Below, one piece after another: positions 17,955 through 58,704 of a DNA stretch of 64,000 bases (its first letter is position 1; the number at the start of each line of letters is the position of its first letter). Under the pieces are notes generated by a model, which saw only the letters and a program-made list of their open reading frames with translations, was not told the DNA's origin and ran no database searches. The stretch lies in NCBI RefSeq assembly GCF_022846255.1, contig NZ_AP025682.1; one strand, written 5' to 3'. A program made the translations under genes and the position numbers. The DNA comes from Escherichia coli (GTDB taxonomy: Bacteria > Pseudomonadota > Gammaproteobacteria > Enterobacterales > Enterobacteriaceae).

Positions 17955-19352
17955 ATGCCGCGCACTGTAACACATAATCCGGATAGCCCCAATAATGACG
18001 ATGTTTTAGCCGCATCTGAAAAATGGGACGCCTGTAAACCCCCCTATACCAGCGCACACATGAAAATCTGTGTTGCTGCCGCCAAAATCATCCTCGCTGC
18101 TTCCGGCGTGGCTCGCCGTTCCAAATACGAAAAAGAGAACTATCTCCGTATCGATTTCAGCAAAGCCGGTAAGGTTACATTTTACGCCGAGTTTCCAAAA
18201 AAGATGGGCCTCAAAGGTAAAAAGCTCGGCGAGTGGCCGGAGCTCGCTATCCAGCTGGCGCGCGAAAAAGCGCTAGGTATGGCTGACGGTGGCCTGCGGG
18301 CAGAGTCCGTACATGCAGCGCTGGAAATGTACCGGGATGACCTCAAAGCCAAAGTCGCCCGGCAGAAGCTGAGCCCGGACAGTTTCACAACCTACGGGGT
18401 GCGTATCGACCGGATTAAAGCAACGTTCGGCGAGCGCGAGGTGTTCAGCGACGTAACATACAATCGGCTGGTGGAAGTGCTGGACGAGTGGATCGCTACT
18501 CGCTCGAACAATAACGCCCTGGAGTTGTTTGCCGAGCTCCGTCGGTTCTGGAAGTTCTGCGCACCTACTCTTTGCAACGGCCGCAATGTTGCCGCCAGTC
18601 TGCCAGATGATTATGTTTCCTCCCGCGTACAGAAACCTACCCCCACACGGCTTTTTACCGATATTGAATCAATCGCCCGACTCTGGCTCAATGTTGCTGC
18701 CTGCACCTCTGTACACCAGAAGAATGCTGTTCGCTTCATGATCATCACTGGTGTTCGTCCGATTAATGTCCATAACCTGCGCTGGGACTACGTTCACGAG
18801 GAGGCTGGTGAAATTGTTTATCCGGAAGGGGTTATCGGCATGCGAGGGGCTATGAAAACACAAAAGGCTTTCCGCCTGCCGATAACCCCTGAGATCCGGC
18901 GGATTATCGACGAGCAGAAAGCCTGGCGTGATTCAGTTCCTGAGTGCAACAGGGATTATGTATTTTTGCAGCCACGTGATCCAATGCAGCCATTTTCAAA
19001 ACGATCACTGGATAAGCTGGTGAAAACATACAGCCCGGACGGGGCTGTAAAAGGAATAAAACATGATGGGACTGTTAAAGGGAAAGACGGTGCATTTAAT
19101 ACGATGTGCCGTAAATTCCTTAAGAGCAATGTTATTGCCTTGATGAAGGAAAGAGGCTATTCCCGCTCAGACCGAAGGGAAATCAGCCTCCTTTGCCTTC
19201 ACCACTCCAGCAAGTCAGATGACCCGATGGCAGAACATTACGACTTTTCTGATGAGATTTTACAGGAAGAGATTGCGTTGAAGCGCGAAGCTTTCGAGGC
19301 TCACGAGCGGAGCATACTTGCGCAGGTGGCATTGCTACGGCGGCGAGGTTAA
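17955..19352 (+). CDS. phage integrase (divergent tyrosine-recombinase-like)
   Basis: 465 aa from the internal ATG with AAGGA Shine-Dalgarno (ORF-track start 17949 is TTG); position beside attL; candidate catalytic R/H/Y residues in the C-terminal half. Confidence 0.65.
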   Translation: MPRTVTHNPDSPNNDDVLAASEKWDACKPPYTSAHMKICVAAAKIILAASGVARRSKYEKENYLRIDFSKAGKVTFYAEFPKKMGLKGKKLGEWPELAIQLAREKALGMADGGLRAESVHAALEMYRDDLKAKVARQKLSPDSFTTYGVRIDRIKATFGEREVFSDVTYNRLVEVLDEWIATRSNNNALELFAELRRFWKFCAPTLCNGRNVAASLPDDYVSSRVQKPTPTRLFTDIESIARLWLNVAACTSVHQKNAVRFMIITGVRPINVHNLRWDYVHEEAGEIVYPEGVIGMRGAMKTQKAFRLPITPEIRRIIDEQKAWRDSVPECNRDYVFLQPRDPMQPFSKRSLDKLVKTYSPDGAVKGIKHDGTVKGKDGAFNTMCRKFLKSNVIALMKERGYSRSDRREISLLCLHHSSKSDDPMAEHYDFSDEILQEEIALKREAFEAHERSILAQVALLRRRG

Positions 19353-19549
19353 TACTGGCTGCGACATTTTTGAATAAAAGCGTCGATATTTCGGCGCTCA
19401 TAACGAACTACTTTTGCACTGAAACGAATTGGTGCCAGGATAGCCCGATGACGATGCTTAATATTCCACTCACATAGCGTTTTCTGTGTAATACCTAACT
19501 TTTGGCATACTTCATCCGGGGTGAGTAAATCGTCGGGTTTCTCGCTCAT
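19349..19549 (-). CDS. AlpA-like excisionase / DNA-binding protein
   Basis: 66 aa (LLTPDEVCQKLGITQKTLCEWNIKH...); convergent with and 4 bp overlapping the integrase 3' end. Confidence 0.6.
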   Translation of the reverse strand: MSEKPDDLLTPDEVCQKLGITQKTLCEWNIKHRHRAILAPIRFSAKVVRYERRNIDAFIQKCRSQY

Positions 19550-20940
19550 GCTATACCTCTCTTTTTCATGGCATCGAGCAGGATGTCCTGCACTGTTCGT
19601 TTTGAGTTGCGCCGCTCCATCACCATTTCATCCATAGTGTCGGCAGCAATAATGTGGTGAATAAATACCGGACGATTGTGTCCGGCCTGTATCTGCCTGG
19701 TGGGGCCGATACGTTCAATAATTTGCTGATATTGCTCCAGGTCCCACCAGTGTGAGAAAAATACCAGTATATTTCCGCCGTCCTGCATGTTCAGGCCGTG
19801 GCCCGCGCTGGCTGGGTGTGCAAAGAGAACAGGAATCTTTCCGGAATTCCAGTCGCGCAGTGTCTGTGGATCCTGGTCGAGGTGACGACCGCGAGGGAAT
19901 GCTTTAAGCAAGCGTTCAAGATCGTGTTTCCAGTGATAAGCAACCAGCACAGGTGCGCCAGCTGCTTCGGTCAGTATGCTGTCCAGCGCCTGTAGTTTGG
20001 TGTCATGCAGTTCTGACCAACTTCCGGTGTCATCTGTGTATACTGCGCCGCTGGCGATTTGCAGACACTTCAGTGTCTTTGCCGCGGCGTTCGGTGCTTC
20101 GATGCCTTCGCCATTCAGCTCGAGGAACATTTCCTTTTCCATTTCACGATACTGCTGACGGGCCTTCGGTGGCATATCCACGCGGATTACGTTATGGATG
20201 GGGTCTTTGATATCGAACCAGTCGGCCGCATCCAGCGAGAGGGTTACATCGGCTAACGCTCGCTGTATTTCACCCTGTGAGTGAGCAAAAGGCTCCAGTT
20301 TGGTCCAGCTCTGCCCCGGAAACTGTATCGAGTTGAACCAGCGTGAGGTAAACGCGCCGTAAGTGCGCCCGAGACGTTGCCCCTGGTCCACAAACCACGA
20401 TTGTCCCCACAAATCTACCAGGCCGTTCGGTGCTGGCGTACCGGTGAGATTTATCCAGCGCCGGACATACTTATGCGCCACTTTGCCCAGCGCCGCCGCG
20501 CGCTTACCACCACCGCGCAGCCGGAAGGATTTTAGCCGGGTGCTTTCATCTGGAATGACAGTACCGAACGGCCATCGTTCTCCCAATTCTTCAATCAGCC
20601 AGACAAGGTTATCGTAGTTGATGGTGAACACGCTTGCGTTGCTGTTCGTCAGCGCCATAGAGCGCGCTTTGGCATTACCAATAATTGGCTGCACCTCGAT
20701 ATTGCGCAAATGTCCCCACTTCAGTGCTTCATCCGGCCATGTGCTGGCAGCCACGCGCAGCGGCGCGAGGACCAGTGCGGGGCATGTTTCTGCCCCTGCC
20801 ATAAAGAGATCTTCCAGCGCAGTGAGCGTTGCCACGGTTTTACCCATTCCCATCCCCGCCCAGATGTTGCCGCGCAGGGTTTCGGTTTCGTGGTTGATAA
20901 TGAGATCTTGGTAGGGGCGAGGTATATATTTTGGGGGCAT
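19546..20940 (-). CDS. SNF2-family helicase-like protein
   Basis: 464 aa; GMGMGKT Walker A, DEAD-like VIPDESTRL, helicase C-terminal region. Confidence 0.7.
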   Translation of the reverse strand: MPPKYIPRPYQDLIINHETETLRGNIWAGMGMGKTVATLTALEDLFMAGAETCPALVLAPLRVAASTWPDEALKWGHLRNIEVQPIIGNAKARSMALTNSNASVFTINYDNLVWLIEELGERWPFGTVIPDESTRLKSFRLRGGGKRAAALGKVAHKYVRRWINLTGTPAPNGLVDLWGQSWFVDQGQRLGRTYGAFTSRWFNSIQFPGQSWTKLEPFAHSQGEIQRALADVTLSLDAADWFDIKDPIHNVIRVDMPPKARQQYREMEKEMFLELNGEGIEAPNAAAKTLKCLQIASGAVYTDDTGSWSELHDTKLQALDSILTEAAGAPVLVAYHWKHDLERLLKAFPRGRHLDQDPQTLRDWNSGKIPVLFAHPASAGHGLNMQDGGNILVFFSHWWDLEQYQQIIERIGPTRQIQAGHNRPVFIHHIIAADTMDEMVMERRNSKRTVQDILLDAMKKRGIA

Positions 20941-20955
20941 ATAATATGGCTCCTA

Positions 20956-20989
20956 AACAACAAAAGGCCAATTTAGGCCTTTTGTTGTT
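20956..20989 (-). terminator. 14-bp perfect hairpin between the 305-aa cargo gene and the helicase gene
   Basis: AACAACAAAAGGCC / GGCCTTTTGTTGTT with loop AATTTA; 3' arm is U-rich on the minus-strand transcript. Confidence 0.45.
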
Positions 20990-21002: not shown

Positions 21003-21920
21003 TTATAATAGTGCTGTTACTATTGCATCTTTAAAAATATTTTCTTCTTCATTTATTAAAGGTGATGACAGATGAATAATTACTTCTTTTCCTGTCAATA
21101 CTATTTGCTCGACTTGAAATCCTGCGTTGTGTAGTCTTTGGCGTAACTTTTCTAGTGCTGATTTTGATATACTAAATCCTTCACTCCTTATAGTATAACT
21201 GGCAACTCCATTTTTAATAATATCTACAGAGTTGTCAATTTCCTGCTGCGAGTAATTTTTCGGTGAGTCGAAAAATCTGGATTTTGTCGTTGCTGTTGCC
21301 CTAAGAGATATCAATAATGATTTGATATCTTTAATCTCAGATGCCAGATACTCAGTTTCTGATACTTCTTTCTGGTCTAGTTGTGCAACTTTGAAAGTGC
21401 CAAAATGTTTGAGGAATGTTGTGTATTCAGGATCAGTTACTGACTTTAAATATGTTTCTTTTATCTTGCTCGCAAGTCTTTCTTTGAATAAATTGATTGA
21501 TTGGTATCTTAAATCCGAAGGGTACTCTAAATGTTCAATTGATGAAATGTCAAAGCTATAAGGAGTGCGCTCGTCCTTAATAATTACGGTCGGTTTGTCA
21601 AATGCGAGACGCATTCCTAATTCAAACATTACATTAGCGTTTCGAGCACTTATATCGCAAACAACTATGGGGTTTTCATAAAGATTTTGAACAATTCGTT
21701 TTTGTATTACTGCAACATCATCATCTGAACTTACCAAATTTGCCTTGAATCCGGCATCATTTGATGCTTCACAAATAATGTCATGAACATTTCTCCAATG
21801 TCCAGTGGGATAACCTTCTATGTCCGCAATTGGCATAATAATGCCGCATATATGAGGTGGCATATTTTTGTTGTCTTTTACATCATCTTGGTTTATTTCT
21901 TTCGTTTGTTGCTTAGCCAT
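21003..21920 (-). CDS. hypothetical cargo protein with N-terminal TIR-like/NDT-like domain
   Basis: 305 aa; motifs ICGIIMPI, PIVVCDIS and RNANVMFELGMRLAFDKPTVII resemble the beta-strand and NV-x-FELG core of the 253-aa protein; AT-rich by eye. Confidence 0.35.
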   Translation of the reverse strand: MAKQQTKEINQDDVKDNKNMPPHICGIIMPIADIEGYPTGHWRNVHDIICEASNDAGFKANLVSSDDDVAVIQKRIVQNLYENPIVVCDISARNANVMFELGMRLAFDKPTVIIKDERTPYSFDISSIEHLEYPSDLRYQSINLFKERLASKIKETYLKSVTDPEYTTFLKHFGTFKVAQLDQKEVSETEYLASEIKDIKSLLISLRATATTKSRFFDSPKNYSQQEIDNSVDIIKNGVASYTIRSEGFSISKSALEKLRQRLHNAGFQVEQIVLTGKEVIIHLSSPLINEEENIFKDAIVTALL

Positions 21921-21935: not shown

Positions 21936-22220
21936 CTATTGTAATTTTTTGCCTAATATACATGAAAGCTCCTTACTATCCAGTACTACCACGGTAAAGC
22001 CCAGTTTTCGCAGACGTTCATGCTCGCGCAACTGATCAGGTCGTGGTGGTTTGCCTGGTGCTTTGCATTCGACAAAGACGATGCGACCGCCGGGTAGCAG
22101 AACAATGCGATCTGGTACCGAGCGGAGACCGGGAGATACGAACTTAAAGGCAACCCCGCCAGCCTTTTTTACTTCAGCGACGAGGTGCTTTTCGATTAGG
22201 TTTTCACGTTCATAGGCCAT
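21936..22220 (-). CDS. VRR-NUC domain nuclease
   Basis: 94 aa (GFKFVSPGLRSVPDRIVLLPGGRIVFVECKAPGKPPRPDQ). Confidence 0.65.
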   Translation of the reverse strand: MAYERENLIEKHLVAEVKKAGGVAFKFVSPGLRSVPDRIVLLPGGRIVFVECKAPGKPPRPDQLREHERLRKLGFTVVVLDSKELSCILGKKLQ

Positions 22221-22414: not shown

Positions 22415-22604
22415 CGTCCACCTCCTTACGCTTTTCGCGCATGTTCTGCATCAGACAAAAATCAAACCGACGTTCGCTTTGGCCCAGACCTGCATCGCCC
22501 GGTCGTACCCGCTGGACTGTTCAAGGCGCAAAGCCTCCCGCGCAGTCCGGTAATAAAGCGGACTGTCCCGGTATTTAAATGACATAGGGTTTTTATTCCC
22601 AAAT

Positions 22605-22625
22605 AAAAAACCCCGCAATGCAGGG
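22605..22625 (-). terminator. hairpin with U6 after the 253-aa cargo gene
   Basis: Minus-strand CCCTGC / GCGGGG stem with one G-U pair and a 3-nt loop, followed by U6. Confidence 0.4.
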
Positions 22626-22649
22626 TTGTAATCAACAATAAGGGGGTAA

Positions 22650-23411
22650 TTACGAGGAAGCGTTAGCTATTTGAGCTTGTGTAAATTCGAAACCAGAATT
22701 TTGTAACCGTTGCACTAGACGAGGAACTGTTTCACGTACATGGTCGTTGAAATTCAGATACAAAATCCCGTTAGCATCAGAAGGCTGTTCTAGGTGCTGT
22801 TTCTGAAGGATTGCTACATTGCTGCGCCCTAAGGACGAAAGAAGCATACCCATCTCGAGTACAACGTTCTGTCTTGCGCGGGGTTGGATTTCTGCTTCAC
22901 CGGCGCGCTTTGAGTATCCCATATCATCAGGTGTCAAAAGAACAATCCCGAAACGGGTAGCAGTTTGTCCTTGCCCAATTTCACGTTCAAGCTCTTCAAT
23001 AATGGTGAGTCCAGTCCCTCCCGTATTCTGCAAAATGAAATGGTCTGGTAATCCAAGTTTATGAAGGATTAGCTCAAGTTGTTCCTTTGCAGTATGGTCA
23101 TGGCCGTGAACAATGAATATCTTTTTGGGAAGCTCAGATGGCTGTTCTACGGCTAGTGGTGTTGCCGTGGGGGGCGTTCCTAAATGGGACATTATTGCAG
23201 TTTCAACATTGGGACGTTCTTGAGGGTTACCTTGAAACTGAATGGTCCGGGTGGTGTAAAGGTTAACAATTACGCCATTCGTTAAACGATAGCAGTCATA
23301 AGTCTCACGCTGTTCGTGGGAAAAATTGGTGAACCCACACTCCCTCAAAAAGTCAGGAAAAGATTCTCTCGGGTATGGATAGGTGATCGGCATTTCAGTT
23401 AGTTCCTGCAT
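22650..23411 (-). CDS. hypothetical cargo protein with C-terminal TIR-like domain
   Basis: 253 aa; KKIFIVHGHDHTAKEQLELILHKLGL and RARQNVVLEMGMLLSSLGRSNVAILQK resemble the COG4271-type TIR-like nucleotide-binding fold (from memory of motifs); unrecognised ~100-aa N-terminal domain. Confidence 0.45.
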   Translation of the reverse strand: MQELTEMPITYPYPRESFPDFLRECGFTNFSHEQRETYDCYRLTNGVIVNLYTTRTIQFQGNPQERPNVETAIMSHLGTPPTATPLAVEQPSELPKKIFIVHGHDHTAKEQLELILHKLGLPDHFILQNTGGTGLTIIEELEREIGQGQTATRFGIVLLTPDDMGYSKRAGEAEIQPRARQNVVLEMGMLLSSLGRSNVAILQKQHLEQPSDANGILYLNFNDHVRETVPRLVQRLQNSGFEFTQAQIANASS

Positions 23412-23475: not shown

Positions 23476-25551
23476 TCAATCTTTTTTGTAGTGGTACGCC
23501 TCAAAGCCGCCAGCGTTCAGCGGAATATCGGGTGCCCATTCGGGGTTAGTGGAGAGAAGCGCGGAAAGCGCTTTATCGTTGAAATCTTCTGTGTCTGGTG
23601 CTTCGGTGATCACCTCGTCGTGTACCGTTAGCACAATGCTGTAACCGGCACCCTCGATCAGCGGCATGTTTCTGGCCAGAACGTCGCGGGCGGCCGCCTG
23701 GGTGACGTTCTCCACCAGCTTTCCGCCGTAGGTTTTGAGTCGTTGCCATTTACGCGAATAAGAGTTAACACCCATGTAGGTGATATTCCCTTGTTCGATA
23801 ACCGGAGACGGGTAGCATACAGCGCGTCCGGATGGTAGCTGTATGCGCAGCCACGCGCCATCACGTCGGATTTTAAGATAGCCGCAATACAATGTTTTTT
23901 GCGGTGTGGCGATTGCTGTGCGGACAGTGCGCTCCAGCTCGTACCAGAAATCGCAGGTCGCCGGGTGCGCCCTGCGCCACAGGCGCTTGAGCGAGTCACA
24001 TGCGATGAATACACGCTCGGACAGGCCAAAGGTCGACTTACGCTTAACCGATTCGTCGTACCAGCTTTTTGCCTCGCGGATAACATCGCGGGGAATGTTT
24101 GGCAGTGCGGCGTTCGCCAGCTCGTCGAGATCGAGACCGTAAACCAGAGCAAAAGTGATGAAAGCCGATACACCACCTCCATAACCCAGACCGAGTTCCA
24201 TGACTTTACCGATCTGACGCATGTGTTTATCAACATCATCTGGTGCAATATCGAAAGCTTTTGCATACGCCAGTTTATATAAGTCCGGACCCGTTCCAGC
24301 GTCATACTCTCTGAATGCATTCAGTTTCCATTCTTCTCCCGCCAGCCATGCCAGCATACGGCCTTCAATGTTTGACAAGTCACTTACCACTAGTTTTTTG
24401 CCTGTTGGCGCGATAATGCAGCCACGTAACGCTGAACTGGTTAGTTCCATGATATTGTCAAACAGCAGGTCTGCACATCCGGCTTTCAGTGCTTCGATGC
24501 CTTCGTCTATTTGTTCCTGTTTTAGTGAAGGGCGGGGAAGGTTCTGGGGCTGGAATAGCCGTCCGGCCCAACGACCGGTACGTGACGCCCCGCAGAACTG
24601 TAGCGTACCGCGTAAGCGCCCGTCGTGGCTTACGCCTTTCATCAGTGCCTTGTATTTACTGGTGCTGGTAGTACTGGCTTGCAGGCGGATAGCCAGCAGT
24701 TCTTTCACGGCAGATGATAAATCGGGGTCGGCCATACGACGTTCCAGGGTACTGCGTTGCATGTCTGGTAGCTCCACACCGTAGGATTCAACGATGTGCT
24801 TAATCAACGCGTCCCGTTGTGTGGCTGCCTGCACTTCGCCATCAGTCATTTCCTGTGTACGCTTTGCTAGGCGCTTTTGCTCCTGGTCTACCGCTTCGAT
24901 CGCAGCGCGCGCGAGTTGCATGTCCATGCAGACGCCCCGGTCGTTGATCTGCTGATCACGATGCCAGAGCGCCAGCTCTGTCCCCTGATAATTCCACTTC
25001 GGCAGACGTTTATAGACTTCGCGCATTGCCTCGATATCCAGTCCGGCGTAAGCAACAAAGCGCCGCCATTCTTCCGGGTGGGTTTTGCTGGTGGCACGGC
25101 GCAGTTTGCTGTTTTTCGGGCGGGGCTTACAGAACAGCTGGATCAGCGCTTTACCTTCTTTGTCCTTCGCTTTGTCTTGCGGGACGCCGAGTATTTCGCA
25201 GAGTTCCCCCAGAGACCCCGGGAGACCGTGCGCCAGCGCCTGCACCATTGTGTCTCGCCAGCGTTTGGCGCTACCTGCAACAACGCATTGGGGAGTGTGC
25301 AGCAATGCATGGCGCAACATGGTGCGATCGAAATGGCTGTTGTGTGCATATATTAGTACGCTCTCATCGCTGAGAGCTGTCAGTAGTCGTGTCGGCAAGT
25401 TATAGTCTGTGGTTAAATCGTGTACGCTGACGGGGTCTTCGTCGATTGCCCATGCGAATAACATGATTTCGACTCCTTCTGCATAGACATGGGTGCCGTT
25501 TTTTATTGGGATTTCGCTGAAAGTTTCGAGGTCTAACCAAAGTTTTTGCAT
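23476..25551 (-). CDS. family A DNA polymerase (PolA-like, exonuclease + polymerase)
   Basis: 691 aa from the first ATG ([13 protein letters not shown]... exonuclease-like); the ORF-track start at 25593 is TTG and lies inside the upstream hairpin. Confidence 0.8.
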
Positions 25552-25580
25552 CAAGTAAGGACCCGTTGGATTTAATAAAT

Positions 25581-25607
25581 AAAAAGCCGCCAAAATGGCG
25601 GCTTTTT
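25581..25607 (-). terminator. rho-independent terminator directly after the SIR2-like gene
   Basis: GCCGCC / GGCGGC stem with a 5-nt loop, flanked by A5 and T5 (bidirectional shape). Confidence 0.6.
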
Positions 25608-42373: not shown

Positions 42374-42376
42374 AAA

Positions 42377-47537: not shown

Positions 47538-47540
47538 TAC

Positions 47541-50159: not shown

Positions 50160-50746
50160 TGGATATTCTCTCTACACTTTTTCATCAGCAGAGCAGAAAA
50201 ATAGGAATGATTGTTCCCAGTGTTGTTATTTCAGAGAAGCATACAGATATGCTTGAAATAACCGAGCATCCGGTAGAAGTCGGGGCCGCTGTCGCTGATC
50301 ATGCCTATAAAAAACCGTCAGAAGTGGTGATGGAGGTTGGTTTCGCCGGTGGCGGCGCATTGCTGGATTTTGCCAGTAATCTGACGGCTACCAGCCTGCT
50401 CGGCCTGAGTCCTCAGCAGACGTATCAGGAGCTACTGGATCTGCAGGAAAGCCGTATCCCCTTCGATGTGGTAACCGGTAAACGACTGTACAGCAACATG
50501 TTGATCCGGGCGCTGGAAGTGACGACGGACAAGACAACCGAAAACGTCCTGTCCGCCGTTCTTACCCTGAGGGAGGTCCTTATCTCCCGGACACAGCAGA
50601 TTACCGTCGCGGATAAAACCAATATGAAGGAAGGGGCCAGCACCTCGGCGGTACAGAACAGCGGCAACAAAACCACAAAACCTCCAGATACTTCACTGCT
50701 GAAAAGCATCACGGGTAACGTGGCGTCATTACTGGGGGGCGGCTAA
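50159..50746 (+). CDS. tail/baseplate assembly protein (putative)
   Basis: 195 aa; start overlaps the tape-measure stop. Confidence 0.4.
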   Translation: MDILSTLFHQQSRKIGMIVPSVVISEKHTDMLEITEHPVEVGAAVADHAYKKPSEVVMEVGFAGGGALLDFASNLTATSLLGLSPQQTYQELLDLQESRIPFDVVTGKRLYSNMLIRALEVTTDKTTENVLSAVLTLREVLISRTQQITVADKTNMKEGASTSAVQNSGNKTTKPPDTSLLKSITGNVASLLGGG

Positions 50747-51048
50747 TGACAATTCAGGAAATTCCGCTGACAGCGGACAACCAGCAGTTCAGCATCGTCC
50801 TGGGTGGTGTCACCTGGCGGATTAGCATCATATGGCGCGATCTTTACTGGATTATGGACCTGCTGAATGACAGAGGGGAGCCGGTAATCTCCGGTATTCC
50901 TCTCGTCACTGGCGCTGATCTGCTGGCGCAGTACGCCTGTATGGGACTTGGTTTTAAGCTGTTGGTGGTCTGCGATGACAACACACAGGATTATCCCACG
51001 AAAACTGACTTGGGCGGGCGCAGTCATTTACTGGTATTAACGGAGTAA
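50746..51048 (+). CDS. tail protein (putative)
   Basis: 100 aa; coupled. Confidence 0.35.
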   Translation: MTIQEIPLTADNQQFSIVLGGVTWRISIIWRDLYWIMDLLNDRGEPVISGIPLVTGADLLAQYACMGLGFKLLVVCDDNTQDYPTKTDLGGRSHLLVLTE

Positions 51049-51050
51049 GC

Positions 51051-52112
51051 ATGTCACAGAACTGGATGAGACATTTCGAGCTGCAGCTTGTGGACGGGAA
51101 CGGTCAGGGAATTGAGCTAAGTGATTTCAAAGTCACCTTTACGATCGACTGGTTCAACATCAGCAGCGCGTCCCGGGTAGGGACTATCAAAATTTATAAC
51201 CTTTCGGCAGATACTGTGAACCGAATTACCGGGCAGGAGTTTTCGAAAGTGCGTCTGATTGCGGGTTACGACGGTATCGCGCCGGAGGTGTCGGCAAGCG
51301 ACGTCGGGACAGTGCGGGAAGTTGACGCGGCGGACGTGGGCCAGAGTGATGGTCGCAACTACGGACTGATTTTCAGCGGTGAAATTCGCTACTCGGTCAC
51401 AGGAAAAGACAGTCCGGTTGATTCCTACGTCCTGATTCAGGCAGCAGATACTGATCTGGCTTTTGCCACCAGTATAACCTCACAGACGCTGGCTGCCGGT
51501 TACACGGTCGCTGATGTGAACCGTGCGCTGATGAAAGACTTCGAAGCCAAAGGTGTGACCGAAGGCCTGACGCCTGAAATGCCTGCTACTGTATTCCCCC
51601 GGGGGCGGGTGCTCTTTGGCATGACGCGGCATCTAATGGATAACGTAGCCGGGCAATGTGGCGCAACATGGCAATTCGTGGACGGTCAGCGCCAGATGGT
51701 GGCGACTAATGAATATGTTCACGAAGCGATTGTGCTCAACAGTGCTACCGGGCTTATTGGCATGCCGCAGCAGACCATCGGCAACGGCGTAAACGTCCGC
51801 GCTCTTATTAATCCGAACATCCGGGTTAACGGGCTCATTCAGCTGGATCAGGCTTCCGTCTATCGTACCGCGTTGTCGAACAACGATATTGCGATGGCTG
51901 GTGGTCAGATCACCGACCAGAACACGGACGGAAATATCACGCTCAGCGGCACCACATCGCAGCCTGCCAGCATCGCAACGGATGGAGTTTATATTGTGCG
52001 CGGGATTATGTACAGTGGCGATACAAGGGGCCAGGCGTGGTACATGGATATGATGTGCGAAGCGCGTGGCGCGGCGGATCTGTATACGCAATCGGCTTTG
52101 CAAAGGGGATGA
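51051..52112 (+). CDS. baseplate/tail protein (putative)
   Basis: 353 aa; position. Confidence 0.4.
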   Translation: MSQNWMRHFELQLVDGNGQGIELSDFKVTFTIDWFNISSASRVGTIKIYNLSADTVNRITGQEFSKVRLIAGYDGIAPEVSASDVGTVREVDAADVGQSDGRNYGLIFSGEIRYSVTGKDSPVDSYVLIQAADTDLAFATSITSQTLAAGYTVADVNRALMKDFEAKGVTEGLTPEMPATVFPRGRVLFGMTRHLMDNVAGQCGATWQFVDGQRQMVATNEYVHEAIVLNSATGLIGMPQQTIGNGVNVRALINPNIRVNGLIQLDQASVYRTALSNNDIAMAGGQITDQNTDGNITLSGTTSQPASIATDGVYIVRGIMYSGDTRGQAWYMDMMCEARGAADLYTQSALQRG

Positions 52113-52115
52113 GCA

Positions 52116-52457
52116 ATGAGGGGTATTATTTTTCTGTTAGCTGTCTTTTCTGCGTGCAGCGCGTGGGCGGATGGCTTCACGGTTAAATGCGGTGGCTACA
52201 CTATGGTTGCAAACCAGGGCGAGTTATCGACAATCAACGGTGAAAGAGTTACCTCTCAAAAAATCACCGAACTGGGTACCAATGGTTTGAAAGTAGACAT
52301 GGGGCTTATGCCTGCCAAAGACGGTAACAACTACGGCTTTGAATACATTCGTCGCCCTGGTACCGAAACGCGATTCCTGAATGTCCAACTGCTGCAGAAC
52401 AGCATGGATGCGCCGAAAATCATCGGTTCCTTTCCATGCAAAAAGATTGTTGATTAA
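52116..52457 (+). CDS. secreted small protein / possible lipoprotein (cargo)
   Basis: 113 aa; N-terminal signal sequence MRGIIFLLAVFSACSAWA; inserted between baseplate genes. Confidence 0.45.
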   Translation: MRGIIFLLAVFSACSAWADGFTVKCGGYTMVANQGELSTINGERVTSQKITELGTNGLKVDMGLMPAKDGNNYGFEYIRRPGTETRFLNVQLLQNSMDAPKIIGSFPCKKIVD

Positions 52458-52474
52458 TCACTCGTAATTATAAT
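52447..52474 (+). promoter_or_regulatory. candidate sigma-70 promoter for the 79-aa membrane-protein gene
   Basis: TTGTTG, 16 bp, perfect TATAAT; about 37 bp upstream of the ATG at 52511. Confidence 0.45.
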
Positions 52475-52510
52475 GTGGTACTTCTACTTTCACGATAAGG
52501 AATTTGTCGC

Positions 52511-52750
52511 ATGTTCGGATTTGATAAATTAATAACTCCAAAAATCATCAACGTTCTGTATGGCATCACAATGTTACTTCTGGTTGTTGCCGCCATTATA
52601 ACGTTTGTTAATGGGAAGGCTGCTGGCGCTTTAGTGCTTTTGTTATGTGCTGTATTTTGCCGAATATTCTTTGAGTGCATCATGGTTTCATTTAAAAACA
52701 ATGAGTATCTTCGCCGAATAGCTGAAGCGTTAGAAGCAAACAAGCAGTAA
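52511..52750 (+). CDS. small two-helix membrane protein (cargo cassette)
   Basis: 79 aa with two hydrophobic helices; own promoter and terminator; AT-rich. Confidence 0.5.
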   Translation: MFGFDKLITPKIINVLYGITMLLLVVAAIITFVNGKAAGALVLLLCAVFCRIFFECIMVSFKNNEYLRRIAEALEANKQ

Positions 52751-52766
52751 TGAAACTTCAATAATG

Positions 52767-52790
52767 AACCCGCCACCCGGCGGGTTTTTT
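52767..52790 (+). terminator. rho-independent terminator after the membrane-protein gene
   Basis: CCCGCC / GGCGGG stem with loop ACCC followed by T6. Confidence 0.65.
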
Positions 52791-52809
52791 GCTTTCTGGA
52801 GCCTACTAA

Positions 52810-53562
52810 ATGGCAGTATCTGACCAGACCCGCAGCGGCGACCTTGCCGAAACATTCAAATCTGAACGGGAAACAACAAAGAACCAGATCCGTGTCGCCT
52901 TGCCTGGCATTGTTCAGTCATTCGATCCCGACGCGGTGACGGCGGTTGTGCAGCCAGCTATCCGTTCGGTTGAAAAGGATAACGACGGTAACCGCATTAC
53001 CAAAAATTACCCGTTGCTGGTGGATGTGCCAGTGGTATTTCCGCGCGGCGGAGGCTGTACGTTGACTTTTCCGGTTAAAGCCGGGGATGAGTGTCTTGTC
53101 GTTTTTGCCGATCGTTGTATTGATTTCTGGTGGCAGAGCGGTGGGATACAGGAGCCGGTCGATGACAGAATGCATGATTTATCGGATGCGTTTTGTATTG
53201 CCGGTCCCCAGTCGCAGGCGAGGAAGATTAGCGGTATTAATACCAGTGCCACACAGTTGCGTAGTGACGACGGCAGCACCTATTTTGAGCTTAATCCTGA
53301 TACCCGGAAAATTAAAATTGTCGCCCCGGGTGGTCTTGATGTGGTTGCCCCTCTGGCTGATTTTTCTGAGAAAGTAACCATTCATGGCCTATTAACCTGG
53401 ATGGGGGGCATGGTGGGGTCTGTTGTTTCTGGTGTGGCTTCAAAAATCACTGGTGCTGTTGAGTTCTTGGGGAGCGTTAAGGCTAACGGCAAGCCAATCG
53501 ATGATACGCACACTCATGGCGGTGTTCAGCGCGGTGGAAGCAATACCGATGGGGTAAACTGA
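52810..53562 (+). CDS. baseplate central spike protein (gpV-like)
   Basis: 250 aa; C-terminal HTHGGVQRGG motif typical of V-type spikes. Confidence 0.55.
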   Translation: MAVSDQTRSGDLAETFKSERETTKNQIRVALPGIVQSFDPDAVTAVVQPAIRSVEKDNDGNRITKNYPLLVDVPVVFPRGGGCTLTFPVKAGDECLVVFADRCIDFWWQSGGIQEPVDDRMHDLSDAFCIAGPQSQARKISGINTSATQLRSDDGSTYFELNPDTRKIKIVAPGGLDVVAPLADFSEKVTIHGLLTWMGGMVGSVVSGVASKITGAVEFLGSVKANGKPIDDTHTHGGVQRGGSNTDGVN

Positions 53563-53915
53563 TGCGATACAGACGTGAAGACGCCGATGGCGATTACACC
53601 TTTGGCAGCGGTGATGACACCTGGCTGATTAACTCACCGGAGGCCGTGGCGCAGGCGGTAAAAACGCGATTCGAATTGTGGTATGGGCAATGGTTTCTCG
53701 ACACCACCGAGGGGACTCCGTGGATCCAGTCCGTGCTGGGCAGGCAAAAACCGGAAACTTACAACCTGGCGATCAGAAAACGCATTCTGGAAACGCGGGG
53801 CGTTAAATCAATCCTCTCTTTCAATACGACGGTGGATACCACGACCCGACGTGTCATGTTTTCCGCTGAAATCGACACTCTCTATGGAATAACGACTGTT
53901 ACATCGGAGGCGTAA
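53562..53915 (+). CDS. baseplate protein (gpW / Mu gp46-like)
   Basis: 117 aa; coupled between spike and J-like genes. Confidence 0.45.
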   Translation: MRYRREDADGDYTFGSGDDTWLINSPEAVAQAVKTRFELWYGQWFLDTTEGTPWIQSVLGRQKPETYNLAIRKRILETRGVKSILSFNTTVDTTTRRVMFSAEIDTLYGITTVTSEA

Positions 53916-55114
53916 TGGCTCTGAACCTTGATTCTCTCGGTTTATCTGCAAAGGTAACCGCGGAGGGGATCAGTGCGCCTGATTATCAGACGATACTCAG
54001 CACCCTGATTAGCTATTTTCAGCAGATTTATGGCAGTGATGCCTACCTCGAACCGGACAGCAAAGACGGCCAGATGGTGGCTCTGACGGCGCTGGCGATT
54101 CATGATGCCAATAATATGGCGATAACTGTCTACAACTGTTTTTCACCGGCAACCGGCTATGGGGCTGCACTGACCAGTAACGTGAAAATAAATGGTATTT
54201 CACGTAAAGGCGCGACGAACTCTACGGTTGATTTGCTTCTTACAGGAACTGCCGGAACAACCATCATTAATGGCAGCGTGAAAGACAGTAATAATGTGAT
54301 ATGGCGTTTGCCTGCTTCAGTGGTGGTCGGCGTGGATGGTACAGTGATGGCGACCGCAACATGTTCCGTCAGTGGTGCAGTGGCGGCGCTGGCTGGAACT
54401 ATCACTGAAATTAATACGCCAACCCGTGGCTGGGTTTCGGTAACTAATCCTGCTGCGGCTACTGTTGGCTCTCCGGCAGAAACTGATGCTGAGTTACGTA
54501 TCCGCCAGTCGCAAAGTGTTGCGTTGCCATCAATAACCCCATTTGAAGCACTGGATGGTGCTGTTTCTAATGTTACCGGTGTAACCCGCCACAAACTCTA
54601 TGAAAACGATACTGGTTCGGAGGACGGTAACGGGTTACCGCCACACTCTGTTGCTGTAATTGTGGATGGCGGTGATGTGACGGATATTGCTCAGGCTATC
54701 AGAGGGAATAAAGGCCAGGGGACAGCCACTCACGGTACAACATCCGTTACGGTTCCGGATAAATACGGCAATCCCCATGTAATCAAATTCTCGCGTTCCA
54801 GTGATGTGCCTGTTTATGCCCGGATTAAATTAAAAGTTTTTACGGGTTATACCTCACAGATAGGGCAGCAGATCCAGCAGGCTATTTCCGACTATATCAA
54901 TAGTTTGACGATTGGTGATTCGGTCCTTTTAAGTCGCATTTACTCACCGGCGAATCTTGGCGTGGTGAGTGGCGGGAATGCACGCTATTACGATATTCAG
55001 GAACTGACGATTGGGAAATCCCCGGGGGCTTTGTCGTCATCAAACATTGATATCAGATACAACGAATCTGCGTCCTGTACCCCGGAAAATATCGTTATAA
55101 CGGTGGAGTCATGA
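53915..55114 (+). CDS. baseplate J-like protein
   Basis: 399 aa; position and size. Confidence 0.55.
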   Translation: MALNLDSLGLSAKVTAEGISAPDYQTILSTLISYFQQIYGSDAYLEPDSKDGQMVALTALAIHDANNMAITVYNCFSPATGYGAALTSNVKINGISRKGATNSTVDLLLTGTAGTTIINGSVKDSNNVIWRLPASVVVGVDGTVMATATCSVSGAVAALAGTITEINTPTRGWVSVTNPAAATVGSPAETDAELRIRQSQSVALPSITPFEALDGAVSNVTGVTRHKLYENDTGSEDGNGLPPHSVAVIVDGGDVTDIAQAIRGNKGQGTATHGTTSVTVPDKYGNPHVIKFSRSSDVPVYARIKLKVFTGYTSQIGQQIQQAISDYINSLTIGDSVLLSRIYSPANLGVVSGGNARYYDIQELTIGKSPGALSSSNIDIRYNESASCTPENIVITVES

Positions 55115-55791
55115 GCAAATACACCGAACTAATCACGAACTACCACGCCACCAAACCTAAATTTCTTGCGCATGTTGATCTGATGACCCGGCCGCTTATT
55201 GATGCTGCGGCGGCCACCAGAGGGCTGATTACTGCATTTGATATTGACTCTGCGGTTGGTGTGCAACTTGACATTCTGGGATTGTGGATCGGACGTAGCC
55301 GTGTTGTCAGCCAGCCTATCTCAGGTGTCTATTTCAGCTGGGATACCGACGGGCTTGGATATGATCAGGGGGTATGGCAGGGACCATACGATCCTGATTC
55401 CGGATACATGTACCTCAGCGATGAAACTTATCGTGTCATTCTTAAAGCGAAGATTGCGATTAATAACTGGGATGGACGGAATGATTCGCTTCCGGCAATT
55501 CTTGACGCTGCAACAGCAGGATCCGGGCTGCGAATGCAGATAGTCGATAACCAGGACATGACGATATCGGTCTGGGTCTTTCCTGATACTGATATTTCAG
55601 ATGTATCGCGTGAGTTAATTGCGGCAATTAAACAGGGGTATCTCACAGTAAAAGCCGCCGGGGTATGGGCGGGTGGCATTGAAACACCTTCGGTGGAAAC
55701 CCCATCGGAAGGCTCAAAATTTTTTGGTTTTGATATGGATAACGAATTCATCAGTGGTTTTGATGTAGGAGCATGGGGAGTATTACTCTGA
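55111..55791 (+). CDS. baseplate/tail-fibre-associated protein (Mu gp48-like)
   Basis: 226 aa; between the J-like and fibre genes. Confidence 0.45.
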
Positions 55792-56609
55792 TGGCGAAAA
55801 ATGACTTTAAAGCGTTTGCAACGGATCGAAATGCCAATGTTATATCGCAGGAGGAATGGGAAGCGTTGCCCGCGCTTGTATCCGGATTTACAGCAGGGAA
55901 AGCCTCCAGTGCGCAAGTCAATAAGGTTATTCGGCAGGCCAGCTTTATTGCTGCAGCTCTGGCCCAGTTTGTAAGTGATAAAACGCAACGGGATGTGCTT
56001 GATAATGGTGATCTGCCCGGTTTTGTTGAATTGCTGGGATCGGGGTTTGCTGTTGAATACCTGAGCCGCAAGAATCCGTTTGGTGATATCAAATCGGATG
56101 GCACGGTGAAAACGGCTCTCGAAAACCTTGGTTTGGGAGAAGGCTCTGCATTACCTGTTGGTGTGCCTGTTCCGTGGCCCTCCGCAACCCCGCCAACGGG
56201 CTGGCTGAAATGCAACGGCGCTGCCTTTGATAAGGTGAAATATTCCCATCTTGCTACAGCATATCCATCAGGGAAACTACCTGATCTCCGTGGTGAGTTT
56301 ATTCGTGGATGGGATGACGGGCGTGGTATTGATGCAGGACGTGCTTTATTGAGCATTCAGACTGGGATGCTGGAAAAACACCGCCATATTGTTGTTGCCA
56401 ACGATGGGTATGATTCAAAAGAGGAATGGGAACTGGCGACAATCTTCAGAAGAGCATATACGCAAGGCCGGGGGCTTGATGCTGCCGATGCCGGAGGAAC
56501 TCTGATTCCATCACCAACGCTACATACACGAGGGAGTATTGGTAACACAGGTGGGAGCGAAACCCGTCCACGAAATATTGCATTTAACTATATCGTGAGA
56601 GCTGCATAA
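55773..56609 (+). CDS. tail fibre protein (constant N-terminus plus invertible variable C-terminus)
   Basis: 278 aa; crossover site lies within codons 117-124 (ENLGLGEG). Confidence 0.7.
56128..56142. repeat. left crossover site of the invertible segment (gix/hix-like)
   Basis: TTGGTTTGGGAGAAG, inverted repeat of 58069..58083; contains the AAACC-TT-GGTTT core typical of Gin/Hin sites. Confidence 0.6.
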
Positions 56610-57211
56610 TGGATAAAGCCGTATTAAATAGCGAACTTATTGCCACGAAGGCGGGGAATATTACCGTCTATAACTATGATGGTGAAACACGGGAATATAT
56701 TTCCACTTCAAATGAATATCTTGCCGTTGGTGTCGGTATCCCGGCATATTCCTGTTTAGATGCTCCTGGCACATATAAGGCTGGTTATGCAATCTGCCGT
56801 TCAGTAGATTTAAACTCATGGGAATATATGCCAGACCATCGCGGTGAAATTATCTATAGCACCGAAACAGGAGAAGCAAAAGAAATCACAGCTCCGGGTG
56901 ATTACCCTGAAAATACAACCACTATCGTCCCGTTAACGCCATATGATAAATGGGATGGTGAGAAATGGGTGACAGATTCTGAGGCACAACACGGTGCCGC
57001 AGTAGAAGCGGCAGAAGCACAGCGCCAGTCACTGATTGATGCAGCAATGGCTTCCATCGGTCTGATTCAGCTGAAATTACAGGCCGGACGGAAGCTGATG
57101 CAGGCAGAAACAACCCGGCTTAACGCTGTGCTGGATTACATTGACGCGGTGACGGCAACAAATACCAGCACAGCGCCGGATGTCATCTGGCCTGAACTGC
57201 CGGAGGCGTAG
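56609..57211 (+). CDS. tail fibre assembly protein (U-like)
   Basis: 200 aa; C-terminal TSTAPDVIWPELPEA-type motif. Confidence 0.65.
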   Translation: MDKAVLNSELIATKAGNITVYNYDGETREYISTSNEYLAVGVGIPAYSCLDAPGTYKAGYAICRSVDLNSWEYMPDHRGEIIYSTETGEAKEITAPGDYPENTTTIVPLTPYDKWDGEKWVTDSEAQHGAAVEAAEAQRQSLIDAAMASIGLIQLKLQAGRKLMQAETTRLNAVLDYIDAVTATNTSTAPDVIWPELPEA

Positions 57212-57626
57212 GCCATTCAATATCTGGCGCACAGGAAGTATCGACCAGTTCCAGTGCGTCCAGATAATCCAGCCATAAATTATATTGCTCCAGCTCGTTA
57301 CCTTTCAGACGACCAATAGCAGCTTTGCCAGGCCACTGATGGGTATTGATGTAAGTATTGGCTTCTGAAACCAAAGATATTTTTTTCATTTCAGCCATCA
57401 ACACCTCATCCTCTTTTGAAGGCGGTGGGGAATTAATCCATATTGGCCGTCCTGAACTGTCAGCGCCAATTTCTTTCCCTTCTGGATGCAGCCCAAGAAA
57501 TTGCTCATATGTTTCTCGGGTAATTTCAATAACATCATCTGGAAGCGTTCCCGCATCCTCATATTCTGGAAACAATTCTTGTAGATAAAAACTTTTACTT
57601 CCGGGTGAAAAGAATACTGAGTTCAT
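57183..57626 (-). CDS. alternative tail fibre assembly protein (U'-like)
   Basis: 147 aa on the opposite strand; C-terminus TSCAPDIEWPTPPAVQAR paralogous to the plus-strand gene. Confidence 0.6.
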   Translation of the reverse strand: MNSVFFSPGSKSFYLQELFPEYEDAGTLPDDVIEITRETYEQFLGLHPEGKEIGADSSGRPIWINSPPPSKEDEVLMAEMKKISLVSEANTYINTHQWPGKAAIGRLKGNELEQYNLWLDYLDALELVDTSCAPDIEWPTPPAVQAR

Positions 57627-57628
57627 TA

Positions 57629-58123
57629 TTACCGTCCAATGATTAACGCTGAGACGCTGGTATCTGAAGGAAAGGCTGCATTCAGTGGTTTGTCGACTTT
57701 GAACACAATCGTATTATTCCCCCTGACAGCGGCAAAAGAACAAACCGCAGTCGCGTATGAACCTGTAATATTACTGGATACACCACCATAAGCTGTTGTT
57801 GATACCAGAGGGATAACGCCCAGCACCTTATTAGGAAATACAAAGGGCAATGTGGCTGTGGCAATATAAGACTTATTAGAGCCTGTGATGGCATAAGCAT
57901 TATCAGTCATTCCATTCATCGCCACCGGGCCGCTTATACTTACAGTAACCATCTGAATGATTAGCCCGTCAGGTTGACGAATCACAAAATTTCCATTGCC
58001 ACCAGTAACCGTCCAGAAAGACATATCAGGGATTTGGTTTTCCCCGTTGCCCACATTCCGTTTTGCCGCTTCTCCCAAACCAACGTTTATGAAAATGCAG
58101 AAATAACGAGCAAATGGCATCAT
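57629..58123 (-). CDS. alternative tail fibre variable C-terminal segment (Sv'-like)
   Basis: Minus-strand ORF whose 5' end (..INVGLGEAAK) spans the right crossover site; expressed only after inversion fuses it to the constant fibre N-terminus. Confidence 0.55.
   Translation of the reverse strand: MMPFARYFCIFINVGLGEAAKRNVGNGENQIPDMSFWTVTGGNGNFVIRQPDGLIIQMVTVSISGPVAMNGMTDNAYAITGSNKSYIATATLPFVFPNKVLGVIPLVSTTAYGGVSSNITGSYATAVCSFAAVRGNNTIVFKVDKPLNAAFPSDTSVSALIIGR
58069..58083. repeat. right crossover site of the invertible segment
   Basis: CTTCTCCCAAACCAA, reverse complement of 56128..56142; about 67 bp upstream of the invertase start. Confidence 0.6.
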
Positions 58124-58149
58124 TCCTGCTTTTGTCAGGGAGATCTACC

Positions 58150-58704
58150 ATGCTTATTGGCTATGTACGCGTATCAACAAATGACCAGAATACCGATCTA
58201 CAACGTAATGCGTTGAACTGTGCAGGATGCGAGCTGATTTTTGAAGACAAGATAAGCGGTACAAAGTCCGAAAGGCCGGGACTGAAAAAACTGCTCAGGA
58301 CATTATCGGCAGGTGACACTCTGGTTGTCTGGAAGCTGGATCGGCTGGGGCGTAGTATGCGGCATCTGGTCATTCTGGTTGAGGAGTTGCGCGAACGTGG
58401 CGTTAATTTTCGCAGCCTGACGGATGCTATTGATACCAGCACACCGATGGGGCGTTTTTTCTTTCATGTGATGGGGGCCCTGGCTGAAATGGAACGAGAA
58501 CTGATTGTTGAACGAACAAAAGCTGGACTGGAAGCTGCTCGCGCACAGGGACGAATTGGTGGACGTCGTCCCAAACTTACACCAGAACAATGGGCGCAGG
58601 CCGGGCGACTAATTGCATCAGGAGTTCCTCGCCAGAAGGTGGCGATCATTTATGATGTTGGCGTATCGACTTTGTATAAGAAGTTTCCGGTCGGAGATAA
58701 ATGA
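58150..58704 (+). CDS. serine DNA invertase (Gin/Pin/Hin family)
   Basis: 184 aa from MLIGYVRVSTNDQNTDLQRNAL...; closely resembles Mu Gin as recalled; the ORF-track start at 58114 is an upstream in-frame ATG. Confidence 0.85.
   Translation: MLIGYVRVSTNDQNTDLQRNALNCAGCELIFEDKISGTKSERPGLKKLLRTLSAGDTLVVWKLDRLGRSMRHLVILVEELRERGVNFRSLTDAIDTSTPMGRFFFHVMGALAEMERELIVERTKAGLEAARAQGRIGGRRPKLTPEQWAQAGRLIASGVPRQKVAIIYDVGVSTLYKKFPVGDK

Follow-up and report, generated by a model that had tools for sequence, protein, structure and literature searches.

An apparently intact temperate myovirus prophage integrated in the first codons of yfhL in Escherichia coli

The stretch of Escherichia coli chromosome considered here, 64,000 nucleotides of contig NZ_AP025682.1 (NCBI RefSeq assembly GCF_022846255.1) and referred to below as the window, carries what we take, with a probability of roughly 0.85, to be a single, apparently intact temperate myovirus prophage of 42.3 kb, a member of a common E. 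coli lineage that integrates in the first codons of the yfhL gene. An initial annotation, made from the sequence alone, had placed a prophage at 17955–58704 and described it as a mosaic of lambda-type regulation and lysis, an imported replication module and a Mu-like tail with an invertible fibre. In outline that description stands, the prophage being temperate and modular, with genes for a contractile tail and a lambda-style lysis programme, but the borders, the kinship of the parts and the implied rarity of the element have had to be revised.

The borders were set by a repeat search and by alignment to the empty site in E. coli K-12. A 45-nt direct repeat with an exact 18-bp core, TTCACACATATCACAATT, is present at 17692–17709 and again at 59971–59988, the two cores being identical, and the K-12 sequence tracks the left attachment site (attL) to the left of the core and the right attachment site (attR) to the right of it. 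Because the match to K-12 switches from attL to attR at the core, the prophage extends from 17692 to 59988, a total of 42,297 bp. The genes named in the initial annotation lie at or near the positions given for them, but the element is larger than was thought, by ~260 bp on the left and ~1.3 kb on the right, and two further genes on the minus strand (58785–59432 and 59491–59919) fall within it beyond the earlier right-hand limit. The flanking genes (recO, pdxJ, acpS, shoB and yfhL on the left; yfhH, pgpC and tadA on the right) are those of the E. coli chromosome, with yfhH and yfhL, 55 bp apart in K-12, here separated by ~42 kb.

The att core spans approximately codons 10–16 of yfhL. On the phage side of attL, the prophage encodes a substitute YfhL N-terminus that is near-identical to that of the host (the differences being A2S and K8R); the frame of 86 codons is retained and the region upstream is new. 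With its N-terminus supplied by the phage, yfhL is therefore still a full-length open reading frame (ORF), but its native promoter region has been lost. Previous reports have identified yfhL as a prophage site (PMC3603311; PMC12029490) and one lists the gene as ‘disrupted’ by phage integration (PMC3603311). A tRNA gene was considered as the att target and rejected: there is no tRNA or tmRNA in the window, the target being the yfhL coding start, and a search of Rfam returned no RNA family at gathering score between 17000 and 60500.

Further evidence for the att assignment comes from the integrase, which finds a match in just one of 50,697 phage records, that of the lambdoid Serratia phage vB_SspS_OS31 (76.5% identity). 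The annotated att end of OS31 encodes the same ferredoxin gene start, and OS31 rebuilds the same gene in like manner. The integrase and att end of this phage therefore support the assignment made here and mark the int/att unit as an exchangeable module.

The CI/Cro switch, the Q antiterminator and the S, R, Rz and Rz1 lysis genes that had been read as lambdoid are all present, as judged from Pfam domains, identity to phage lambda and Shigella phage SfV and, in the case of Rz1, an embedded lipobox (Table 1). Five copies of the 16-mer GTWYASNNNNCTTAAC are present in the 64-kb window, every one of them flanking cI, against 0.04 expected by chance for a pattern that was defined post hoc. These 16-bp sites are likely to be the OL and OR operators, in a lambda-style layout, to judge from their sequence and position. 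Just past the primase-helicase gene lies a second group of repeats: seven copies of GGAACCAC are found within 170 bp at 33908–34087 (nine in the whole window against 1.8 expected), in sets that are inverted about a ATATATATATATAA tract. An identical layout in the same position, built from other iterons, is seen in vB_EcoM-611R5 (a GenBank record discussed below; AGGTGACGG), in Yersinia phage YeP4 (TAGACAACCT) and in Hamiltonella phage APSE-1 (GGTTGTTACG), so that the cluster is probably a replication origin with a phage-specific iteron sequence. A 109-amino acid (aa) ORF at 33896–34225 was considered as a gene and set aside: it overlaps the iteron region, its composition looks non-coding and it is probably not a gene. 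The composition of two other ORFs (30212–30505, 97 aa, and 22462–22638, 58 aa) likewise looks non-coding. The Q protein is of the type found in the Shiga toxin phage 933W and in APSE, not of the lambda type.

The implied rarity of the element is not borne out. Prophages with this early region at ≥95% identity are found in ~158 of the 5,426 complete E. coli genomes (~3%), always on the chromosome, and at least 157 genomes match at least 80% of a query spanning the left chromosome–prophage junction. Over 76% of its length the prophage is matched at 96% identity by two GenBank records, vB_EcoM-611R5 and 606R2 (the range for the lineage being 76–80%). These two, together with 689R2 and 683R1 (all with ON4705xx accessions) and the yfhL prophages of many E. 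coli strains (among them 82.0312, O55:H7 CB9615 and O103:H2 12009), have the same backbone, with most proteins 96–100% identical, and the 82.0312 prophage occupies the same yfhL site. Whole-element similarity was estimated as blastn identity multiplied by coverage, which is a one-directional estimate and not a VIRIDIC value. By this measure the prophage is 77% similar to that of 82.0312 and 73% similar to 611R5, which places it within the yfhL lineage, defined by the same site and ~70% or more similarity. None of the complete E. coli genomes matches the whole prophage at ≥99%, the best covering 83% of the left half (at ~98%) and 96% of the right half (at 98.5%). 611R5 itself differs in having an unrelated cI and cro, a primase that is 53% identical over 57% of its length and other iterons, and it also diverges in the fibre tips, in the attR-side cargo, over part of the tape-measure gene and in the small ORFs that separate hub from spike; 611R5-type relatives have a small hypothetical gene where a SIR2-domain gene sits here. 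The 611R5 record (ON470588.1), entitled a complete phage genome, starts inside the prophage, at the SNF2 gene, is without int and xis and ends in host yfhH, pgpC and tadA, its borders being off by several kb. A literature search found nothing on the phage names of the ON4705xx records.

That the prophage is apparently intact has to be weighed against the possibility that it is cryptic, that is, complete in appearance but incapable of excision, replication or particle formation, and retained for the sake of cargo such as the TIR- and SIR2-domain genes. The ON4705xx records look like computational prophage calls and, as they carry host genes and have no integrase, are treated here as predicted prophage regions, not as proof of particles. 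Relatives bear insertion sequences (IS21, IS1 or ISVsa5) and truncated invertases, and a small regulator gene of the ANR family is annotated as frameshifted in a close relative, to which the window is 98% identical at this point. The present copy looks different, however: all of its essential genes are full length in comparison with the relatives, its att cores are identical, it has no IS insertion, its invertase is full length at 196 aa and, at 42.3 kb, it fits the genome size of the SEN34-type phages (40.7 kb) whose virion genes it shares. We consider a cryptic state unlikely. The nature of the ON4705xx records and the frameshifted regulator do weigh against an intact temperate prophage under lambda-like control, as do several other points. 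The operator pattern was set after the sites had been seen, making the chance estimate optimistic; a simple promoter scan found none at the expected positions of PR, PL and PR′; and no homologues of N, CII or CIII were identified among the proteins of the window, leaving the lambda analogy for the decision circuit incomplete.

Distinctly less probable than a cryptic state is the three-source mosaic originally proposed, in which lambda-type regulation and lysis were joined to a replication module from a different phage lineage and to the tail of Mu. The PolA, DUF2815, DUF2800, VRR-NUC, SNF2 and primase set is certainly there, as Pfam searches confirm, but it does not appear to have been brought in separately. 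Gene order runs int, xis, SNF2, cargo, VRR-NUC, cargo, PolA, cargo, single-stranded DNA-binding protein (SSB), DUF2800 nuclease and two ORFs up to cI and then, on its other side, cro, primase-helicase, iterons, Q, cargo and lysis genes. This order is colinear and homologous in APSE-1 and, minus Q, in YeP4 and the Bordetella phage BPP-1 (44–74% aa identity), and in APSE-1 the cI/cro–primase–Q region and the PolA operon already form one unit. The presence of a colinear cI/cro/primase/PolA backbone in all three phages implies that regulation and replication travel together; by sequence comparison the non-structural half of the prophage is one backbone, as opposed to lambda regulation into which foreign replication genes have been inserted.

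The likeness to these phages has clear limits. APSE-1 (Sendosyvirus), YeP4-6 and BPP-1 (Rauchvirus) share the order from int to primase, a cargo slot equivalent to that holding SIR2 and the origin iterons, and APSE-1 further shares Q, a cargo slot and the position of the lysis cassette, although its lysis proteins are not detectably similar. They differ in having other integrases and other lysis alleles, in lacking the TIR and SIR2 cargo and in not sharing the virion module, the only match being between terL and that of APSE-1 (35% over 48% of the protein). The annotation of APSE-1, which includes a tail needle and ejection proteins, suggests a short-tailed particle, in place of which contractile-tail genes are found here. 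APSE-1, YeP4 and BPP-1 are all podoviruses. With lambda and SfV the prophage shares a divergent cI/cro pair with flanking operator-like sites, Q-dependent late genes and the S/R/Rz/Rz1 cassette, but the virion is unrelated and no tblastn match was seen here to any lambda early gene (O/P, N, cII, cIII, exo/bet/gam or nin).

S and R are the only lysis genes that appear to be recent lambdoid arrivals. R had been called near-identical to lambda R: the two are very similar along their full length, but at 89% identity (the SfV protein is closer, at 95%) they are not near-identical. R has no match in Pfam and was identified by its similarity to the lambda protein. S and R together are 89% identical to SfV at the nucleotide level and have no counterpart in APSE-1, which suggests that they were exchanged with lambdoid phages of the local gene pool.

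The virion genes tell a second story of kinship. From terL to the DUF2612 gene (37.4–55.8 kb) the prophage is syntenic with Salmonella phage SEN34, with 65–96% aa identity and ~80% nucleotide identity across the structural half. Proteins of the head module are 69–96% identical to SEN34 and 60–96% identical to Citrobacter phage Omnitron, with the exception of terS (32% over 44% and 64% over 21%, respectively), whilst those of the tail module are 65–93% identical to SEN34 and up to 98% identical to Yersinia phage YP3, the small ORF at 52511–52750 excepted. The same virion module is shared with Hafnia phage yong1 and Klebsiella phage Mulock; in addition, Omnitron and YP3 each have an invertase along with alternative fibre genes. 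Searches of Pfam and PHROGs identify a DUF3383 sheath, a KPP10_Orf10 tube, a Pam3_gp18 plug, a spike with a GpV apex motif and Baseplate_J. SEN34 has been seen by electron microscopy to have an icosahedral head and a long contractile tail (PMC5261728), and particles of the present prophage would be expected to look similar, probably in size too (for the SEN myoviruses, heads measuring 54–58 nm and tails measuring 107–149 nm have been reported). Relatives of solved structure are also found: the sheath matches 7kh1 at E 8e-41 and Pam3 at E 4e-24, and the capsid matches Pam3 at E 3e-19. The solved relatives named Pam3 cover sheath, tube, wedge and capsid, the others being 7kh1/7kjk; a structure chain named ‘Baseplate protein gp47’ surfaces only at E 0.009. 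Cyanophage Pam3 and the 7kh1/7kjk phage (we take the source of 7kh1 to be Vibrio phage XM1) are relatives in the sequences of the sheath, tube, baseplate J and capsid, but they are distant kin with unrelated hosts.

What, then, of the Mu-like tail? The sheath, tube, GpV-motif spike, W-like and J genes on which that label was based are all present, and the order of sheath, tube, chaperone, tape measure, hub, spike, W, J, fibre and invertase parallels that of Mu. When Mu was compared with 56 proteins of the window by tblastn, however, only baseplate J (26% over 43% of the protein, E 3e-4) and Gin matched, making this weak J match the sole detectable similarity to the head and tail of Mu. Since the matches are of the SEN34/Pam3 type and only baseplate J and the invertase match Mu, ‘Mu-like tail’ is wrong as a statement of kinship; any simple contractile tail would have this gene order and, presumably, this mechanism. 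A Mu-like tail of the SfV type was also considered and rejected, SfV matching only S, R, Rz and short fibre segments and nothing in the tail core. Mu differs further in having transposase A/B, to which there is no match here, and in transposing, whereas the prophage is integrated site-specifically in yfhL.

Two other observations concern the tail operon. The tape-measure gene (48150–50159) looks recombinant, being 93% identical at the aa level to SEN34 over 74% of its length and just 74% identical to 611R5, to which the prophage is otherwise nearly identical. Of the small ORFs in the gap between hub and spike (52116–52750), that at 52511–52750 looks by eye like a hydrophobic protein, probably of the membrane, and has no match in any phage compared. 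The gene content of this gap differs in each related phage, making it a variable slot within the tail operon.

The proposal of a Gin-type invertible fibre is upheld. Two 20-nt inverted repeats lie ~1.95 kb apart, with a core of AAACCTTGGTTT that can be compared with AAACCTCGGTTT in Mu gix. The left repeat falls at fibre codons 117–124, both junctions are in frame at ‘GLGE’ and the segment between the repeats holds two opposed sets of a fibre tip and a Caudo_TAP chaperone; the invertase gene begins 26 bp past the right repeat. In sharing a Gin-type invertase (78% identical to Mu Gin), gix-like repeats within the fibre gene, two opposed tip and chaperone sets and a similar overall tail gene order, the prophage does resemble Mu. 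Gin-type invertible fibres are also found in P1, in P2-like prophages and in e14, and thus do not define a Mu relative.

Taken together, sequence comparisons trace the parts of the prophage to several sources. The int/att unit is of a type shared with a lambdoid Serratia phage, the early, regulatory and Q backbone is of the APSE-1 type and the virion is of the SEN34 type, with S and R alleles drawn from the lambda/SfV pool, fibre tips and invertase from the Mu/P2 pool and TIR and SIR2 defence-type cargo in variable slots. The early regions of the SEN34-type phages are either lambda-type (exo/bet/gam, O/P, nin) or P4-primase-type, and these phages have other integrases and lysis genes; this was so for the early region of every other sequenced phage with a SEN34-type virion module that was examined. 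As these phages lack the PolA set, the distinctive junction of the lineage is that between an APSE-type backbone and a SEN34-type virion.

The whole-prophage comparison that had been suggested as a check also bears on classification. Identity multiplied by coverage is highest, among named phages, for SEN34 (a Brunovirus), at 34%, followed by yong1 (27%), Mulock (21%), YeP4 (12%), BPP-1 (5.5%), SfV (2%) and lambda and Mu (1% each), and by this blastn measure the element matches no named genus along its full length. The nucleotide similarity threshold for a genus used by the International Committee on Taxonomy of Viruses is 70%. Given the syntenic structural half, the prophage might be thought a plain member of Brunovirus, but 34% is far below this threshold and SEN34 has exo/bet/gam, O/P and nin in place of the PolA, SSB, nuclease, SNF2 and primase genes; such a membership was rejected as highly improbable.

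Accessory cargo insertions were correctly noted in the initial annotation: blocks of low GC content at 20–23, 25–27 and 58–60 kb contain the TIR and SIR2 genes and other ORFs. These blocks might suggest two tandem elements, the prophage and, at one of its ends, a distinct defence island or satellite, but a single att pair flanks everything, there is only one integrase and the low-GC genes sit in conserved operons between genes common to YeP4 and APSE-1, so that this reading is scarcely credible.

The TIR and SIR2 genes both lie inside the early replication operon, with the PolA gene between them. The TIR gene, of the CAP12/Pycsar type, is conserved in the E. coli relatives examined, including those without SIR2, whilst SIR2 occupies its slot in just four complete genomes, others having Nmad5 or a small hypothetical gene there. 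We considered whether the two might constitute a Thoeris system (ThsA with SIR2 and ThsB with TIR) and rejected this: the genes are not adjacent, do not occur together and gave no SLOG match. Similarity of the SIR2 protein to ThsA is confined to the SIR2 domain (E 4e-18), and the best match of this protein is the single-gene candidate PDC-S25. Scarcely any mention of PDC-S25 or PDC-S35 was found in the literature. The neighbouring 305-aa ORF is 100% conserved in the relatives and is not found in YeP4, APSE-1 or BPP-1; its sequence (…VVCDISARNANVMFELGMRLAFDKPTVII…) is reminiscent of the nucleoside 2-deoxyribosyltransferase or TIR-like fold, which it may have. It could be imagined that the slots holding the 305-aa ORF, TIR and SIR2 form a defence or counter-defence hotspot, the latter two acting as a split Thoeris-like pair that depletes NAD, or as phage tools against NAD-based host immunity, expressed in the lytic phase and not as morons expressed in lysogeny. 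This is very doubtful, the present analyses offering no positive support for TIR and SIR2 acting together or in counter-defence.

Read by eye, the 215-aa ORF on the attR side seems to have a hydrophobic segment at its N-terminus and to be rich in helices thereafter. In SEN34 the corresponding slot is occupied by an O-acetyltransferase, so that the 215-aa ORF may be a lysogenic-conversion or exclusion gene. Within 59491–59919, the real gene is probably the C-terminal ~90 codons only. Ten proteins scanned against NCBIfam (seven uncharacterised ORFs, the 300-aa early ORF, the integrase and R) gave no match.

Table 1. Features of the yfhL prophage, in order of position in the window (HTH, helix-turn-helix)
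Feature	Position	Strand	Evidence and remarks
attL core TTCACACATATCACAATT	17692-17709		In 5′ end of yfhL; direct repeat and K-12 alignment
Phage-derived first ~10 yfhL codons, replacing host MALLITKKCI	17710-17739	-	Alignment and sequence; OS31 att end codes for this gene start too
Tyrosine integrase, 465 aa	17955-19352	+	Pfam Phage_integrase; 76.5% aa to integrase of lambdoid Serratia phage vB_SspS_OS31
Small HTH protein, probable excisionase	19349-19549	-	Pfam HTH_17 E 1e-5, slightly under curated cut-off; xis position as in OS31, APSE-1 and BPP-1
SNF2-family helicase	19546-20940	-	Pfam SNF2-rel_dom; aa identity APSE-1 74%, YeP4 73%, BPP-1 66%
305-aa cargo ORF	21003-21920	-	GC 0.41-0.44; weak PADLOC TIR-effector match E 1e-6, residues 54-134; no Pfam or NCBIfam match
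VRR-NUC nuclease	21936-22220	-	Weak Pfam VRR_NUC; aa identity YeP4 71%, APSE-1 68%, BPP-1 52%
TIR-domain protein, candidate defence gene PDC-S35	22650-23411	-	Pfam CAP12-PCTIR_TIR E 3e-31; PADLOC E 1e-108; not in YeP4, APSE-1 or BPP-1
Family A DNA polymerase	23476-25593	-	Pfam DNA_pol_A; aa identity YeP4 73%, BPP-1 67%, APSE-1 64%
SIR2-domain protein, candidate defence gene PDC-S25	25628-27130	-	Pfam SIR2_2; PADLOC E 4e-158; GC 0.385; variable slot
SSB (DUF2815/Enc34 type)	27221-27769	-	Pfam Enc34_ssDNA-bd E 2e-44; APSE-1 55%, YeP4 62%, BPP-1 66%
DUF2800 PD-(D/E)XK nuclease	27785-29086	-	Pfam DUF2800 E 2e-110 and PDDEXK_1; APSE-1 55%, YeP4 58%, BPP-1 46%
Two conserved early ORFs, 300 aa and 60 aa	29089-30170	-	97-99% aa to 611R5; C-terminus of 300-aa ORF matches YeP4 and APSE-1 P53
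Three operator-like 16-mers GTWYASNNNNCTTAAC, putative OL	30626-30705		Left of cI
CI-type repressor, HTH and S24 self-cleaving peptidase	30771-31463	-	Pfam HTH_3, Peptidase_S24, Phage_CI_repr
Two operator-like 16-mers, putative OR	31481-31543		Between cI and cro
Cro	31577-31762	+	Pfam P22_Cro E 2e-16
Primase-helicase (VapE/D5-type)	31752-33938	+	Pfam VapE-like_dom E 2e-60; YeP4 73% over 98%; APSE-1 P3 72% over C-terminal 56%
Putative replication origin, GGAACCAC iterons in inverted sets around AT-rich tract	33908-34087		Just past primase-helicase gene
Q antiterminator	34218-34640	+	Pfam Phage_antitermQ E 5e-42; 42-46% aa to 933W-type Q and APSE Q (APSE-1 44%)
113-aa ORF in Q-to-holin cargo slot	34672-35013	+	No family match; mostly missing from 611R5; APSE-1 slot holds P7-P10
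Terminator-like hairpin and T-run, candidate Q-overridden terminator	35332-35353	+	Between Q and S; consensus scan only
Holin S, probable start at Met-Lys-Met motif 35459	35441-35800	+	Pfam Phage_holin_3_1/PF05106 lambda-S holin family; 90% aa to SfV S
Endolysin R	35804-36280	+	89% aa to lambda R, 95% to SfV R, full length for both
Rz (i-spanin)	36264-36788	+	35% aa to SfV Rz
Rz1 (o-spanin lipoprotein), embedded in Rz, +1 frame	36526-36687	+	Lipobox LLSGC and Pro-rich tail
Packaging and head: terS, terL, DUF1073 portal, head-morphogenesis protein, DUF2213, cement-like protein, DUF2184 capsid protein, connectors, neck	36850-45937	+	SEN34 homology; PGAP names
Contractile tail and baseplate: sheath, tube, chaperone, tape measure, Dit-like, plug, hub, two variable small ORFs, spike, W-like wedge, baseplate J, DUF2612	45941-55791	+	Pfam and PHROGs
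Tail fibre: constant N-terminal part (codons 1 to ~120) and currently expressed variable C-terminal part	55773-56609	+	N-terminus 68% aa to SEN34 fibre; collar domain; C-terminal part matches lambda stf
Invertible segment, gix-like inverted repeats 56123-56142 and 58069-58088	56123-58088		Sv and tfa (+); tfa′ 57183-57626 and Sv′ 57629-58123 (-)
Serine DNA invertase (Gin/Din family), full length, 196 aa	58114-58704	+	Pfam Resolvase and HTH_7; 78% aa to Mu Gin over 94%
215-aa low-GC cargo ORF adjoining attR	58785-59432	-	GC 0.41; no match in Pfam, PADLOC, PHROGs or NCBIfam; none in any phage compared
Small conserved phage ORF adjoining attR	59491-59919	-	phrog_17793 E 3e-44; 91% aa to 611R5; 76% to SEN34 over 69%
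attR core, then displaced original yfhL 5′ end	59971-59988		Direct repeat and K-12 alignment

If the prophage is indeed an intact temperate myovirus, its life cycle may be pictured as follows. The tyrosine integrase would recombine phage and chromosome at the 18-bp core, the phage end rebuilding the YfhL N-terminus, and in the lysogen the LexA-like self-cleaving CI would bind the 16-bp sites on both sides of cI to keep the leftward early operon and the rightward cro–primase operon off. Upon induction, the leftward operon would supply PolA, the SSB, the PD-(D/E)XK nuclease, VRR-NUC and the SNF2 helicase, a self-contained replication and recombination set, and the rightward operon would supply Cro and the primase-helicase, the latter firing an iteron origin downstream of its own gene. 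Later, Q would read through the terminator into S/R/Rz/Rz1 and the virion genes to yield a SEN34-type particle with a contractile tail. The Gin-type invertase would flip the 1.95-kb segment, swapping fibre tips and chaperones and so changing host range.

As a discovery the prophage carries little weight, since it illustrates in an unremarkable way how phages of E. coli evolve by modules. It is of use mainly for annotation: the true prophage borders are set, yfhL is seen to be rebuilt by the phage and not destroyed, and the ‘Mu-like tail’ label is corrected to the SEN34/Pam3 type. The TIR and SIR2 slots add one more prophage location in which to seek candidate defence genes, and the joining of the two halves suggests that an early backbone of the APSE type can drive a myovirus virion module.

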